From Lysobacterales bacterium (lineage in GTDB: Bacteria; Pseudomonadota; Gammaproteobacteria; Xanthomonadales; SZUA-5): a stretch of DNA of 64,000 nt. Numbering within the stretch: the first letter of the stretch is position 1; every line of letters starts with the position of its first letter. This document shows, one piece after another, positions 1 to 4,190 of the stretch. A program made the position numbers and the translations under genes. The stretch lies in contig JALHMH010000013.1 in assembly GCA_022844165.1 (NCBI GenBank), positions 1-64,000 of the forward strand, in the 5' to 3' direction. Below the pieces are notes generated by a model that was not told where the DNA came from, ran no database searches, and worked only from the letters and a program-made list of their open reading frames with translations.

Positions 1-263
1 AACTGCAAGCCGTAAAGATCGAGCTTAACCGTGCTCCAGGAATGCGAGCCGATCAGCTCGGTGAAGTAGTCGCGCAACTGTGCCTCGTCGAGCGCTTCGA
101 TGCGATACCCGAAATACGCTCCCGCACGCCGCACCGCACGCGAATAGGCATCGATGGTTTTGGGCTGCAAACCCTTGAGTTTGAGGTGCTTCAGGTGGCA
201 CTGATACAGCGCATCAAAGCGCTCACGATCTTGCTCGCCGGACAAGCCTGTCATGGTAGTCAT
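1..263 (-). CDS. Tyrosine recombinase/integrase, N-terminal SAM-like domain (partial, runs off window), of the type paired with IS91-family transposases
   Basis: Not in the ORF track. Manual translation from ATG at 263 (GAGGA-like RBS upstream) gives MTTMTGLSGEQDRERFDALYQCHLKHLKLKGLQPKTIDAYSRAVRRAGAYFGYRIEALDEAQLRDYFTELIGSHSWSTVKLDLYGLQ. The 'L.LKG..PKTI.AY.RAVR' and 'S.STV....L' segments are typical integrase N-terminal helices. Confidence 0.8.
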   Translation of the reverse strand, partial: MTTMTGLSGEQDRERFDALYQCHLKHLKLKGLQPKTIDAYSRAVRRAGAYFGYRIEALDEAQLRDYFTELIGSHSWSTVKLDLYGLQ

Positions 264-376
264 TCCTCACGGTTGAAGGCACAATCACTCCCTCGGTCCG
301 CGAAGGAATGCCCGTGAAGGTTACGCCGCAATCCTCATCCCGAAGACCACTTCTCCGCGTAGCGGCTTCGTTCAAC
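1..376 (-). mobile_element. Recombinase-proximal end of an IS91-like (Y-recombinase + Y2 transposase) element, abutting an attC site
   Basis: Integrase 5' end followed by non-coding sequence that ends ...GCGGCTTCGTTCAAC, joined directly to the body of an attC site. Confidence 0.6.
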
Positions 377-425
377 AATTCATTCAAGCCGACGCCTTCG
401 GCGCGGCTTAACTTAAGCGTTAGGC
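370..425 (+). other. Integron attC site (59-base element)
   Basis: GTTCAAC-AATTC-ATTCAAGC-CGACGCCTTCGGCGCG-GCTTAAC-TTAAGC-GTTAGGC. It has R'' (RYYYAAC), L''/L' boxes that pair with one extra C, a central hairpin and R' GTTRRRY. It closely resembles short aadB/Xanthomonas-type attC sites (recalled, not searched). Confidence 0.85.
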
Positions 426-1114
426 TTCACATTCACACGCATGAAGCTCACCACCTCCAGAGAATCAGTCTCGCACGCGATGCGCGCCTATGCGGAGGGC
501 AAGCGAGCTTCTGGTGCCCGCGATGCCAAGACATGGTTTGTCCGCGGCCCAGATGCAAAGCTGCTGCCACTGAAGCACATTCTCAGTATTGCAACTGGCC
601 TCCCAACCAGAGACTTCAATACCTCGGACGCGATATCAACTGCGCAGTCGCTTGGATTTGAACCGGTCTTCGTTGGCGACCCGGTCCTTGCTGACATCGT
701 CCAGGTTCTGGAATCGAAGCGAACAGACGCAACCGAAGTGGAGCAACTCATCCTAGCCAGACTTGGCCAAGGTGCGTTCCGCAGGTCGTTGCTCAAAGAA
801 AGGAAGCAGTGCTTTGTCACCGGCTACCCCGATCCCCAGGTTCTTGTTGCCTCACACATCAAGCCTTGGGCTCGTTCGTCGGACACCGAGCGACTCAACC
901 CAAAGAACGGGCTTCTGCTGATTCCGACGCTTGATCGTGCTTTCGATCGAGGCCTCATCTCGTTCGAAGATGAGGGACAGATCTTGATCTCAGACCGTCT
1001 GATGAAACCGGAGAAGTTGGGAATCAATCGACGGCTCAGACTCTCGGCGTTCGTAGGCCGCGAGACCTTCCTTGAATACCATCGCCGAAAGGTGTTCAAG
1101 CGGTGACGCCTAAC
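419..1114 (+). mobile_element. Integron gene cassette carrying an HNH nuclease
   Basis: Core site GTTAGGC (419-425) lies 15 bp before the ATG. The exactly complementary inverse core GCCTAAC (1108-1114) lies 1 bp after the stop. The cassette holds a single ORF with no room for a promoter. Confidence 0.85.
441..1106 (+). CDS. HNH endonuclease (HNH_2-type), putative modification-dependent restriction enzyme
   Basis: C-terminal 'RLGQGAFR..L....CFVTG....LVASHIKPW....ERLNPKNGLLL.PTLDRAFDRGLISF...G.I..S' is the classic HNH_2 signature. There is an additional ~80 aa N-terminal domain. Confidence 0.88.
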   Translation: MKLTTSRESVSHAMRAYAEGKRASGARDAKTWFVRGPDAKLLPLKHILSIATGLPTRDFNTSDAISTAQSLGFEPVFVGDPVLADIVQVLESKRTDATEVEQLILARLGQGAFRRSLLKERKQCFVTGYPDPQVLVASHIKPWARSSDTERLNPKNGLLLIPTLDRAFDRGLISFEDEGQILISDRLMKPEKLGINRRLRLSAFVGRETFLEYHRRKVFKR

Positions 1115-1160
1115 GATTAGGGATAGATCGCGCGAAGCCGCGATCTATCCCGGGTTGAAC
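1115..1160. mobile_element. Hairpin terminus of a second IS91-like element copy, fused to the cassette R'' box
   Basis: Perfect 13-bp stem GGGATAGATCGCG (1120-1132) / CGCGATCTATCCC (1139-1151), then GTTGAAC (1154-1160). It sits directly after GCCTAAC and downstream of the transposase remnant. Confidence 0.6.
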
Positions 1161-1454
1161 AAGCCCGGTCTCGCAGGTTGGTGTCATCTTTATAGGGGAA
1201 AGATCTTCGCGCTTTGGCTGTTGTCTGGCGCGTTGCCGATTGGCTGTGGGCGCATCGATAAACGTTGGCCGAGTTTAGCCGTGCTCTGCGCTGAGCGGTG
1301 CGTTTGCGATGCGGTTGAATCGTCGAGTCGTTGCGTAATCTCCTTTGCAAAATGAGTGGCCGGCGCTGTGTTCGATGGTGTCGTGAAACAGTGCGCGGGG
1401 CTGCGGATCGGTGGGCTTGTTGGAGTTGCGAAAAGCCGATCCGCAATCGGTGGT

Positions 1455-1715
1455 TTATCCATCCGGCCGGCGCAGGATTTGTCCGATCAAACGCATCGGC
1501 ATCTTGCACTTCGGACAGCACAGCGGCGGCCGCGGTTTTTGTTCGCGCTGATTGAGGAGCACGCGCAGGATCAGTTGCACGAGCGTCAGTCGCGCTTTGG
1601 CTTTGCCGTGCAGGAACCCATAGTCGCGCACGCGACGCAAACCGGTGGGCAGGACGTGCTGCAACACATGTCAGAGGAACTGTGCGACGGGTAGCTCGCG
1701 ATACGCCGGCCGCCA
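1455..1715 (-). pseudogene. IS91-family (Y2) transposase C-terminal remnant
   Basis: Reads YRELPVAQFL*HVLQHVLPTGLRRVRDYGFL...CCPKCKMPM. LQHVLP.G.RRVR.YG.L and the terminal CPxC are IS91 transposase motifs. There is an in-frame TGA at 1671-1673 and the 5' part is missing. Confidence 0.85.
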
Positions 1716-1940
1716 CCTGCAGCAGGCGGAACTGATTGGATCCGCTGCGTGTGATCGTGCCATTGCGCAGGGCAATGGGGCTATTCACCCGCGGCAGTCC
1801 GCACTTCGCGCTCCGGCTGCCTTTCACCACGTTGCCCCCGATGTCCGATCGCGGGATGCGCAACTTGTTTTCCGCCAATCTATGCAACACACGTTTCGCA
1901 ACAGTTACAATTGGCTTCCCTTGGACTTTCGGAGGCACTG

Positions 1941-2360
1941 ATGGCGACGAACAGTTGCATTGTGATGAACTGGATCAACTTGACCAATACCCCCATGACG
2001 TTCTTTCAGCCGAGGCCACAAACACATGGGACGAATCCGACGGCGACCCCGGGGTTCATGGACGCCGGTCCGTCCGGGAACACATCATCGGTTCAGGCCG
2101 ATCCATCTGACCTCGTCTTCGGGCCCGGACCCGAAGGTATCTATCAATGGTTGATCGGGGAAACCATGCAGCTGATCCAAGTCATTTACAACCACCCTTT
2201 CGGCACCGGCAAGACAACCGTGACAATCACCTGTCCGGATGGTTACCTTGTTGCCGCCTGCGGCGAAGGCCCTGCCACGAGTCTCAACTTAGGGGCCACC
2301 TGCGTTTCGCTGCAAAGCCAGATCGCCACGGTGCAAATTCAAATTACTCAGAGCAGCTGA
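1941..2360 (+). CDS. Small beta-rich hypothetical protein, possibly aegerolysin/Cry34-ET79-like fold
   Basis: GGAGG RBS at 1931-1935 before the ATG at 1941. 139 aa. The segment 'GPEGIYQW...IQVIYNHPFGTGKT' resembles the G.EG...Y...W.NP..G.N pattern of aegerolysin-like proteins. No signal peptide. Confidence 0.5.
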   Translation: MATNSCIVMNWINLTNTPMTFFQPRPQTHGTNPTATPGFMDAGPSGNTSSVQADPSDLVFGPGPEGIYQWLIGETMQLIQVIYNHPFGTGKTTVTITCPDGYLVAACGEGPATSLNLGATCVSLQSQIATVQIQITQSS

Positions 2361-2480
2361 TGCCAGCTGGCGGGAACACAACAGCCGGTTTTCTGGTTTA
2401 GCAGGCCATATGCACAACGGGCCCGTTCGAAGCCAAGAAATTGGCATCATCGCGATGCTCAGGCCGCGGCGGCGTACACC

Positions 2481-4190
2481 ATGAAGACCGGTCGCAACGA
2501 CCCCTGCCCTTGCGGCAGCAGCAAGAAGTACAAGCATTGCCATCTGGCGATCGACACGACGGTTGCTCCCGATCGCTTGGCTTGGCGACGGCTGAGTCGG
2601 GTCATCGATGAATCTAAGCTGCTGCCGCAGATGTTCGAATTCGTCGCCGAGCACTACGGCATGGATGCCATCGACGAAGCGTGGGCTGAGTTTTTCGTCT
2701 GGCGCAATGTGCTCGACGACGTCGACGATGGCGATGTTGACTTTGACGATGACGATATCGACGGCGACGTTGACGATGACGCGTTGGAGAACGATACGTA
2801 CCTGGAGCACGAAGCGAACGAGCTGCAATCGGAAGAGACCGATGCCGACCAGGACACGTCCGAACTCATCGCGCGACTGAGCGGAAGTTCGAGCCAAAGC
2901 CCGGCGTCGCAACTGGACGCGCCCGTTGGCGACGCAAGGTCGCCTGTCGATCTCGTCGAACGCGAGGCGATGGCGACCCAAGACGCCGACGACGAGTTCG
3001 GCGAACCATACTACGACGATGACCAGTACACGAGCTTCGATCCTGATTCCCCTTTCGCAGAGGTTTTCGCGCATTGGTTGTTCGCGCTATGGGCCCCCAG
3101 CCCTCACCTCACTGTCGTGGCGAATCTGGAACTTCACGATGTTCCGCCGATTAAGCTGTACTTGCGACTGCGCGGCCATCGGCTCGATCCCTTGCTTCGG
3201 GAATACTTGACGTCGCTATCGACGACTGCGGTCAGCTTTTTTGAAATCGCGGCAACGCACGACGACGGTCGCCTTGAGGTTCGCGATGTGATGCTGCTGA
3301 GCGCGCACACCCTATTCGATGGCACGCTTTACAAGACCGTACGCCCTGGCGATGTGCTGATGGGGTTCATGGGCAGTGCTGGAGGCATCAGCATTTTCTC
3401 GGCCGTCTGGCCTTATCCGCTCCGCTCCGTCGACCTGCTTGCGATCATCGAGTTTCGCGAGCAGATCGCACAGAACGAAACACTAACGCGCGAAATCCTC
3501 CGCGCTTGCAACCTCGACTTCAGCGATCTGTATTTCGCCACCTTGGAACGACGCATGCGCCCGCCGCGTCTCACTACCACTGATGGCGAATTGCTGCAGC
3601 CGCAAGTTCTCAATTACGCGATCGACTCAGCCGACGACGCCTTCGAAGCGCTCCATAAACTCGACGTTACAGCTTCGCGCGAAACCCAATGGCAGAGCGT
3701 GTCGACGACGGACGACGGCCGGATCGCGCAAGCGACGATTCTTTGGACTCGCGTTGGCAATGCGCAGCATCCGGACTGGGAAAGCACGGTGCTGGGGCGC
3801 ATCCGGTTGAGCGCCGGTCGCATGCAAGTCGACGTGGCTTCTGGCGAACGTCGCGTGTGCATTCAAGCGCTGATCGATGCACGGCTGGGGCAGCGTGCGC
3901 GCCTGCTGTCGGTCGATTCGCCGCAATCGGCGCTGCAAGGGCGAATGGAAGGACCCGAGGTCGATGCGGCGATGGCGGAGTTCGTTCGACGCCACTACGA
4001 AACCTGGCCCGACCATCCATTGCCGGCACTCGATGGCCAAACGCCTCGCGAGGCGCTCGCAACCGCGATCGGCCGCGAGAAAGTGGCAGCGCTATTGCGC
4101 GATTTGGACGCCGTTGCAACACCTCCACCTGGACATCAAGAAGCGATCGGCCGATTACGTCAACAACTCGGCATTTCGGCGCTCACGTGA
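2481..4190 (+). CDS. SEC-C metal-binding motif protein with acidic insert and C-terminal Xre/MbcA/ParS-like domain
   Basis: N-terminal GRNDPCPCGSSKKYKHCH (SEC-C). C-terminal 'W.DHPLPALDGQTPREA'. Asp/Glu-rich tract in between. Confidence 0.85.
   Translation: MKTGRNDPCPCGSSKKYKHCHLAIDTTVAPDRLAWRRLSRVIDESKLLPQMFEFVAEHYGMDAIDEAWAEFFVWRNVLDDVDDGDVDFDDDDIDGDVDDDALENDTYLEHEANELQSEETDADQDTSELIARLSGSSSQSPASQLDAPVGDARSPVDLVEREAMATQDADDEFGEPYYDDDQYTSFDPDSPFAEVFAHWLFALWAPSPHLTVVANLELHDVPPIKLYLRLRGHRLDPLLREYLTSLSTTAVSFFEIAATHDDGRLEVRDVMLLSAHTLFDGTLYKTVRPGDVLMGFMGSAGGISIFSAVWPYPLRSVDLLAIIEFREQIAQNETLTREILRACNLDFSDLYFATLERRMRPPRLTTTDGELLQPQVLNYAIDSADDAFEALHKLDVTASRETQWQSVSTTDDGRIAQATILWTRVGNAQHPDWESTVLGRIRLSAGRMQVDVASGERRVCIQALIDARLGQRARLLSVDSPQSALQGRMEGPEVDAAMAEFVRRHYETWPDHPLPALDGQTPREALATAIGREKVAALLRDLDAVATPPPGHQEAIGRLRQQLGISALT

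Follow-up and report, generated by a model that had tools for sequence, protein, structure and literature searches.

The attC sites may be regarded as the currency of integrons, and two kinds of element have been known to home to them, namely the IS1111-attC group of the family IS110 and the group IIC-attC introns; the element dealt with here would be a third. The introns lie opposite to the cassettes (PMC9229058), and IS1111 is the sole attC-targeting element cited in the available passages of a survey of Xanthomonas (PMC12444791). Concerning the integron integrase, IntI1 has been described to bind the bottom strand of attC and not the top one, recombination at the R'' box marking a top-strand reaction (PMC2727003). 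As for IS91, only the bottom-strand single-stranded circle inserts, beside a tetranucleotide (target 5'-GTTC or 5'-CTTG) and without duplication, the palindrome of terIS lying beside the cut and an upstream open reading frame (ORF) overlapping tnpA (PMC13181058). An integrase-carrying member of the IS91 family present in ISfinder, ISShvi3, was found in a Shewanella integron 'adjacent to an attC site'; according to the same source, no insertion sequence interrupting an attC was detected and the arrangement was taken as 'a new gene cassette structure' (PMC9229058). The present analysis concerns a stretch of 64,000 nucleotides—the window—from a Lysobacterales bacterium (assembly GCA_022844165.1, contig JALHMH010000013.1, here C13), the beginning of which contains two pieces of an IS91-family element with its own tyrosine recombinase (Table 1).

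The region 1–1713 of the window very probably represents the far end of a chromosomal integron array, in which two successive attC sites have been hit at the AAC of their R'' box by the ~2.5-kb IS91-family element. Insertion by members of this family leaves no target duplication and follows a single orientation, in which their genes read against the cassettes; their preferred targets are the attC sites of chromosomal as well as mobile integrons in gamma- and betaproteobacteria. Each of the two pieces in the window borders on such an AAC, that of an inverse core (R''), and reads in the antisense direction relative to the cassettes. The left one carries a recombinase N-terminal part sharing 59% identity with the N-terminus of the recombinase (Int) of the locus L046, and its terminal stretch (355–376), CCGCGTAGCGGCTTCGTTCAAC, consists of a mini-hairpin CCGC-GTA-GCGG (355–365), CTTC and the box GTTCAAC, the AAC of which (374–376) is common to the element end and the attC. 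The fold of this attC exhibits an L''/L' stem at 386–412 with a single bulged base in the 5' arm; the same attC body occurs also behind intact GTCTAAC or GCCTAAC boxes in metagenome contigs. The HNH cassette that follows keeps, of its own attC, only the R'' box GCCTAAC (1108–1114), which is succeeded by the opposite end of the element: GATTA (1115–1119), a perfect 13-bp hairpin formed by GGGATAGATCGCG (1120–1132) and CGCGATCTATCCC (1139–1151) around a loop (1133–1138), then GG and the box GTTGAAC (1154–1160), complementary to the left terminal box. The ORF found further on (1455–1667, minus strand) corresponds to the C-terminus of an IS91-type transposase (Tnp), matching Y2_Tnp (PF04986) with 21.5 bits vs a cut-off of 20.9 over 22 residues only, and this remnant shares 48% identity with the Tnp C-terminus of L044. 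The left copy was cut by the assembly, since position 1 of the window is the first base of C13. The right copy is, on the other hand, genuinely truncated, since its likeness to another copy of the same genome, on the contig C8 (98.5% identity over 1108–1443 and 91% over 1429–1713), stops at ~1713 with no similarity past that point.

All the sequence details that the initial annotation gave for 1–1715 were present on direct reading. Its proposal that an element with a tyrosine recombinase and an IS91 transposase defines a further class of attC parasite, entering at the AAC of R'' in one orientation, is now backed by many independent junctions, by an exact comparison of an occupied and an empty aadA1 site and by head-to-tail contigs of the predicted form left end–AAC–right end, as described below.

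The genome consists of 59 contigs, the window being the first 64 kb of C13. The 22-base word taken from the left end is present six times in it—the reversed control word not once—and, as BLAST and the examined flanks show, identity among the six left ends extends through GTTCAAC and is then lost in all of them, five of the six being followed by different attC bodies. There are also eight right ends, four of the window type (one of them diverged, with 78% identity) and four of a second type (type B), all diverging just before AAC|GA. The heptamers preceding them differ but are all of the RYYYAAC type, i.e. GCCTAAC, GTCTAAC, GCTCAAC, GCTTAAC and GCCCAAC. The pattern of the junctions exceeds chance. 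The genome has its own integron integrase (C27:827–1771; 465.3 bits vs a cut-off of 265) with an attI (GTTAGGC) ~120 bases upstream, and the R'' of the first cassette after intI (C27:1–1771, L153) holds a type-B right end at the contig start. Since this first cassette runs into a right end at the start of a contig, the array is scattered over C27, C8, C13, C42, C55 and C3; contig ends coincide with three left ends and one right end, and it was probably the element that broke the integron array into contigs.

Some of the copies in this genome have been modified. On C8 (L001, 7240–9480 and 11380–11545), one copy has been invaded by an IS66-family insertion in its 3' region, and another one carries a palindromic insert of ~165 bases, resembling a miniature inverted-repeat transposable element, in the recombinase gene (int) together with an internal deletion fusing int to the C-terminal part of a type-B transposase. 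At L001 (4150–4185), as well as at L139, the left end is followed not by a full attC body but by GTTCAAC-N6/7-GTTRRRY, e.g. GTTCAAC TTTGCGT GTTAGAG; such sites could represent either a deleted attC or a core-type site used in double-stranded form. An array of the opposite orientation starts at the C8 site of this kind, which suggests an inversion between copies of the element.

In order to cover other taxa, the hairpin word was scanned in the contigs of one genome per species, which yielded at least 123 loci from many gamma- and betaproteobacterial groups, so that the element is widespread among species-representative genomes. Among the matches listed, with the own genome included, 122 distinct junctions were compiled, 97 of them with a subterminal GTTGRAC-like box, and the counts given here for the 97 are all drawn from those matches. 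Their flank at positions −7 to −1 (G68 C68 C66 T69 A91 A89 C92) gives the consensus GCCTAAC, i.e. the attC inverse core, the bases further out being variable. The AAC is found in 85 of the 97 junctions and the complete RYYYAAC in 55; read on the sense strand, the word adjoining the right end is GTTA in 69, GTTG in 17, GTTT in 8 and GTTC in 3. Of 54 junctions with sufficient flank, 39 lie within 45 nucleotides of the end of an open frame of 60 codons or more on the same strand, compared with 684 of 3000 control RYYYAAC sites of the own genome; the junctions are thus positioned after an open frame as the 3' end of a cassette is. At box-bearing ends, tnp and/or int occupy the expected antisense position in 19 of 36 cases. 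The possibility that the hairpin is a part of the target attC was rejected, because the hairpin and the bases following it are constant, whereas the sequence preceding AAC differs at every copy. In three loci (L040, L052 and L072), the hairpin is followed by a different conserved sequence (GTTGTGCGCCCAGCATGGGCGCGAT...) in the place of the usual box.

Concerning the opposite end, 14 of the 399 genomes sampled from the order (the own one included), from 11 of 99 genera, contain the 22-base word of the left end, and 36 distinct left-end flanks were assembled. Sorted by eye, 21 of them are attC bodies, 3 are doubtful and 6 contain nothing attC-like; the remaining ones comprise two cases of the element's own right end (head-to-tail), two of the inverted hairpin of another copy and two of the short R''-N6/7-GTTRRRY arrangement. 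The search of both ends in other genomes, as suggested by the initial annotation, thus confirmed the attC inverse core on the right and attC bodies for most left flanks, the six flanks that are not attC-like being the part that did not follow. In a test combining shuffle-normalised complementarity of the arms with GTTRRRY, 16 of the 36 flanks passed compared with 30 of 1498 controls (2%), while a crude rule based on folding accepted 12 of the 36 and 106 of 1500 controls; a strict attC regular expression matched just the site of the window. In 17 of the 21 attC flanks, more bulged bases are located in the element-side arm, in one in the far arm, and in three the arms are equal, two single bulges six pairs apart being a recurring pattern. 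The extra bases of an attC presumably lie in its L'' arm; on this basis, the element occupies the R''/L'' side in a single orientation, and the cassette ORFs of the window, of C8 and beside intI run accordingly. In L057 and L147, a copy has entered the inverted hairpin end of a further copy, the reverse strand of which also reads RYYYAAC-hairpin-GTTRRRY.

The most exact evidence comes from a class 1 integron. A search of plasmid proteins with a full-length recombinase as a query led to the conjugative IncC resistance plasmid NZ_LT985243.1 of Escherichia coli, the integron of which exhibits the order aac(6')-Ib3, aadA2, cmlA1, aadA1, [integrase + IS91 transposase, on the opposite strand], qacEdelta1 and sul1. 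When the uninterrupted aadA1 attC from R100 was aligned with it, a 2.3-kb element was seen exactly between GTCTAAC and AATTCGTTCAAGCC (GTCTAAC|AATTCG). There is no duplication, AAC (AACAA) is common to both junctions, and the insert is the only difference between the occupied and the empty site. At the megablast level, this is the one record bearing the element among 72,556 plasmids; a 254-base piece of the copy shares 95% identity with a plasmid of Shewanella sp. ANA-3. Relatives from Vibrionaceae (Photobacterium and Salinivibrio) possess the same architecture with different hairpin stem sequences, and they either sit between small ORFs of the opposite strand or adjoin attC bodies. The element has thus reached a class 1 integron on a conjugative plasmid, where it splits the attC of aadA1 and should alter the excision of that cassette.

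Full copies of the element are 2.4–2.6 kb long and share the order left end, int, tnp, ~300 bases, box, hairpin and end, whereas the derivatives of 0.7–0.95 kb (L039, L063 and L064) retain both ends. The gene int is located upstream of tnp, the two overlapping or abutting each other. The transposase is of the Zn-finger/Y2-HUH type: with the NCBIfam model NF033538 (cut-off 125), the proteins from L081 and L044 score 337.4 and 326.8 bits, respectively, both matching also PF04986 (Y2_Tnp) and PF14319 (Zn_Tnp_IS91). The two motifs by which such transposases are recognised, i.e. HUH and the paired tyrosines, are present in the L081 translation as HTHNRQLGFHPHVHV and RYLGRYLYRGV, the corresponding region being deleted in the window copy. 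In Pfam and NCBIfam, the transposase-family matches of the element proteins were to the IS91 family only, none being of the IS110 type. The recombinase is of a simple Xer/IntI type, with a Phage_integrase match and the HxxR...H...Y residues retained; its best NCBIfam match is the integron integrase model TIGR02249 (157.9 bits in two stretches, cut-off 265), which surpasses the Xer models by ~2 bits. In all five full-length relatives of the GTCCAAC type (L023, L046, L068, L081 and L042), the recombinase frame breaks at a run of A7–A9 just before the ...HSLRHSYATHL catalytic region and resumes in the −1 frame, which looks like programmed frameshifting or transcriptional slippage; the genes of L044 and of the plasmid type are single-frame.

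The initial annotation had also suggested that the element mimics a cassette site, and the comparison of the ends agrees with it. The two boxes, GTYCAAC at the terminus and GTTGRAC subterminally, are complementary and covary, the linked pairs being GTCCAAC/GTTGGAC (seven cases), GTTCAAC/GTTGAAC (five), two with a T.G wobble and one degenerate. Pairing within the hairpin is maintained through compensatory changes: in 60 right ends, 97.9% of the cells of the 12-pair hairpin are paired and 7 of the 12 pairs have changed on both sides, none of 500 shuffles matching this, although it has to be taken into account on the other side that the search pattern itself fixed the inner 8 of the 12 pairs in 57 of the 60 rows. 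Most members have a single bulged base in the 3' arm of the hairpin, and at the left end the mini-hairpin is conserved as CCGC-NNN-GCGG, its loop varying among relatives. When joined, the two ends form an attC-like site composed of GTYCAAC, a spacer, a 12–13-bp hairpin usually with one bulge, a spacer and the complementary GTTGRAC. The joint left end–AAC–right end was found in two contigs, L037 and L072; the former (2366 bases) corresponds to one element in circularly permuted form, i.e. either a circle or a tandem pair. For a third, putatively covarying box type, GTTGCAC (L058, L071, L094 and others), no linked left end was found. The contigs of four metagenome runs contain just pieces of the element and the attC, with no joint across the element, an absence that is uninformative there, and none of the public sequencing runs contains half of the sampled words. 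L022 (4390–4420) has a degenerate head-to-tail junction.

The same end architecture is seen also in IS91 elements with a recombinase on Sinorhizobium plasmids (L163–L166), in which a 9-base terminal box, GGATTGAAC, and the subterminal GTTCAATCC are complementary to each other and enclose a hairpin. The flanks of these elements carry GAATC..GATTC-like palindromic words and neither AAC nor attC, suggesting another hairpin target.

Table 1. Positions of the element pieces and of the cassette features in the window, and of the element-bearing integron on the E. coli plasmid.
Feature	Position	Strand/orientation	Description
Tyrosine recombinase gene, 5' part	3–263	−	87 N-terminal codons, ATG 261–263; Phage_int_SAM_4, E 2.8e-9
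Recombinase-proximal ('left', terIS-like) element end	264–376	−	Terminal box GTTCAAC 370–376; genome copies diverge after the box
attC of the upstream cassette, R'' replaced	370–425	+	Hybrid R'' GTTCAAC 370–376; R' GTTAGGC 419–425
Gene cassette with HNH endonuclease	426–1114	+	ORF 441–1106; PF13391 HNH_2, E 3.2e-13
Transposase-distal ('right', oriIS-like) element end	1115–1160	−	GATTA, hairpin, GG, subterminal box GTTGAAC
Element 3' remnant	1161–1713	−	Untranslated 1161–1454; 1455 to ~1713, last ~85 transposase codons
Element-bearing class 1 integron (L159)	NZ_LT985243.1 7293–18120	Element antisense, inside aadA1 attC	Plasmid protein search

Several observations, however, weigh against reading the locus as the work of an attC-homing element. 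No intact int or tnp of the element is present on any assembled contig of the own genome. Among the right junctions, AAC is missing in 12 of the 97, and of the 36 right ends that carry the box and could be assessed, 17 lack both int and tnp within 2.6 kb; these 17 share a conserved 3' region of ~70–90 bases and look like remnants, many sites being dead. As regards the left flanks, just the 16 mentioned above pass the objective attC test, and the window's own attC falls narrowly below it (z 3.0 vs a threshold of 3.12), the test being conservative; constrained-energy and raw arm-alignment scores did not separate the flanks from the controls in this GC-rich genome. One of the six left flanks without anything attC-like belongs to a full copy residing inside the gene of an ABC-transporter binding protein, at GCCCAAC. 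The two box types may stem from one ancestral change, and the head-to-tail contigs could be tandem copies. Targeting of attC is preferential, not absolute.

When compared with the described systems, the element is closest to the IS91 family (IS91, IS801, IS1294 and the ISCR relatives), with which it shares the Zn-finger and Y2/HUH transposase recognised above the NCBIfam and Pfam cut-offs, the lack of terminal inverted repeats and of target duplication, the palindromes at both ends, the oriIS-like end located downstream of tnpA beside a target word with T at position 2, and the upstream ORF overlapping tnpA, the bottom strand being the plus strand of the window. It differs from IS91 in that this upstream ORF is a tyrosine recombinase and not orf121, in the target, which is 5'-GTTR within the 7-base RYYYAAC/attC context instead of GTTC (3 of the 97 junctions) or CTTG, and in the joined ends making a site of a 7-bp box, hairpin and box. 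ISShvi3 has the same pair of genes, but the target rule, the structure of the ends and a family-wide survey are absent from the available passages of its description (PMC9229058). Like the IS1111-attC group and the IIC-attC introns, the element homes to attC in one orientation, although their enzymes—an IS110-type transposase and a reverse transcriptase/ribozyme, respectively—are unrelated to those of the element, the two ORFs of which are, by protein families and with no Rfam scan run, a recombinase and an IS91 transposase and not a reverse transcriptase/maturase. The insertion points of both these groups within attC are also different from that of the element.

With the IntI/attC system, the element has in common a single-strand, structure-based site consisting of an R box, a spacer, a bulged stem and an R box, the AA|C cut of the 5' RYYYAAC box, insertion fixed by replication, and a recombinase of the simple Xer/IntI type. 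The crossover of the element is, however, at R'' on the top strand, whereas that of IntI is at R' on the bottom strand; its recombinase stays at 158 bits below the integrase cut-off of 265, there is neither attI nor Pc, and it is tied to a rolling-circle transposase. The element differs from a gene cassette, too, being bounded at the R'' of the target attC and not at G|TT of R', and having its genes antisense to the cassettes. We could not find a description of an IS91-type element targeting attC in the open-access literature (PMC and bioRxiv); as far as the accessible texts go, this class of attC parasites with an IS91-type transposase and a tyrosine recombinase appears undescribed, the mention of ISShvi3 being the nearest.

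As for the mechanism, the element would, like IS91, for which this has been demonstrated, exit in the form of a single-stranded circle of the bottom strand, the joined ends of which would fold. Opening of the circle would follow behind its AAC, and the opened strand would be linked to the 3' side of the AAC in the top strand of an attC, the latter being single-stranded or folded; the reaction of the integron integrase on the bottom strand would thereby be mirrored, and replication would subsequently fix the insertion. Since each insertion makes two attC-like sites from one attC, the element afterwards resembles a cassette. The junctions fit the IS91-style and the recombinase-mediated models equally well, so the catalyst of cutting and joining can be named only with reserve: the element's own recombinase is put forward tentatively, the transposase acting alone is likewise a serious possibility, and what remains falls to both enzymes together or to the host IntI.

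According to the first of these proposals, favoured by a small margin, the tyrosine recombinase would recombine two folded structures, the joined-end site and the attC top strand, at AA|C of R''; the transposase would just provide the single-stranded circle, as the initial annotation had it, or serve a second, less specific mode of mobility. It is consistent with the joined ends mimicking the bottom strand of attC, with covarying R boxes and the bulge in the 3' arm, with the target being an R box, and with the crossover identity of 3–5 bases (AAC, AACAA) typical of site-specific recombination. The integron integrase is, moreover, the best, even if below-cut-off and divided, NCBIfam match of the recombinase, and a preprint, in the passages available, groups the IS91-borne recombinases with IntI as its closest homologues without the IntI insertion (10.1101/542381). 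On the opposite side stand the narrow margin over the Xer models and the lack of any preference for IntI in BLAST, the L044 recombinase, a full-length protein of a relative, reaching 91 bits to the IntI of the genome analysed here vs 90 and 87 bits to the Xer paralogues of that genome. Some insertions are in sites that form no hairpin, and in the alphaproteobacterial relatives, in which both the gene pair and the arrangement of the ends are the same, neither AAC nor attC is found at the flanks, so that the recombinase as such does not dictate attC. What speaks for a part of the recombinase, at least as regards the choice of the site, is the length of the target (7 bases), the covariation of the boxes and the strictness of the orientation. 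A more specific version, in which the Xer/IntI-like recombinase performs the full mirror-image integron reaction between the joined-end attC mimic on the single-stranded circle and the folded top strand of attC at R'', is considered rather doubtful.

The second proposal, also a tentative one, is that the HUH/Y2 transposase alone cuts and joins the ends of the bottom-strand circle and a single-stranded target after YAAC (complement 5'-GTTR). The attC sites would be hit because their top strands are often single-stranded, either as the lagging-strand template or when extruded, and are rich in RYYYAAC; the recombinase, standing in the place of orf121, would act in regulation, targeting or resolution. 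The junctions are of the IS91 type, with no duplication and with the oriIS-like end beside a 4-base word having T at position 2, the subterminal mini-palindrome of the left end lies beside the cut as in terIS, YAAC is kept at the non-attC insertions, and IS91 itself inserts the bottom single-stranded circle only (PMC13181058). A −1 shift at A7–A9 is, in one lineage, the only way to the catalytic half of the recombinase, so that most of the product would be a DNA-binding fragment. The known IS91 members, however, need four bases only and are unreported at attC in the passages available, whereas the flank consensus found here spans seven bases, equal to the IntI-binding R box. The 17:1 choice of the R''/L'' end requires a cue of strand or structure, the complementary 7-bp boxes around the hairpin resemble a recombinase core site, and the catalytic residues of the recombinase have been retained. 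The non-attC insertions and the alphaproteobacterial relatives speak for the transposase as the catalyst.

The third proposal, according to which the host IntI moves the element as an odd cassette with the element hairpin as its attC, seems improbable. The inserted element is flanked by two attC-like sites, the authors of the Shewanella study did read their IS91-like element beside attC as a cassette structure (PMC9229058), and transposases and integrases were among the most recurrent 'cassettes' in the Xanthomonas survey (PMC12444791). IntI, however, exchanges bottom strands at R' (G|TT) and leaves the top strand unbound (PMC2727003), whereas the crossover is at R'' here, the genes are antisense in 17 of 21 readable cases, and copies of the element occur also outside arrays. 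With the crossover at the wrong box and on the wrong strand, the host IntI is an unlikely catalyst.

The reading that nothing special is involved—1108–1160 being an ordinary attC, as the initial annotation had itself allowed, and the transposase remnant a coincidence or an assembly artefact—finds some comfort in the 13 of 49 assessable hairpins without the subterminal box, 11 of which have no element genes nearby, a count that weighs also against the attC-homing element in general, but it is largely refuted and highly improbable, given that AAGCCCGG after the box and ~70–90 further conserved bases accompany the hairpin across orders, that the bases preceding AAC always differ, that antisense tnp and/or int are present at the box-bearing ends as counted above, and that an exact empty site is known. 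Two of the hairpins without the box, those of L047 and L125, are solo and perfectly palindromic between RYYYAAC and GTTRRRY, i.e. flanked like plain attC, and they may be either plain attC sites or footprints.

If a third kind of element homes to attC, hairpins of this type would serve single-strand mobile DNA as a landing site in general. Its existence would also account for many 'integrase/transposase cassettes' of chromosomal arrays, as well as for many of the places where contigs break within an array, and would offer a natural system for asking how the choice of the attC strand works without the IntI-specific domain. If the mirror-image reaction were true, the element would be a 'counter-integron' using the strand that IntI ignores, one attC would become two, so that IntI could then shuttle the element as a cassette, and the element would be a living relative of whatever gave rise to IntI-attC; the link between the IS91-borne recombinases and IntI bears on the origin of integrons.

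As regards the remaining neighbourhood in the window, the cassette array stops at the truncated element, since no attC sites are present in 1911–4190. Past the remnant, there is an ORF at 1911–2360 without a family match, and the region 2481–4190 encodes a protein of 569 residues with an N-terminal SEC-C motif and a weak C-terminal match to the Xre/MbcA/ParS antitoxin domain.

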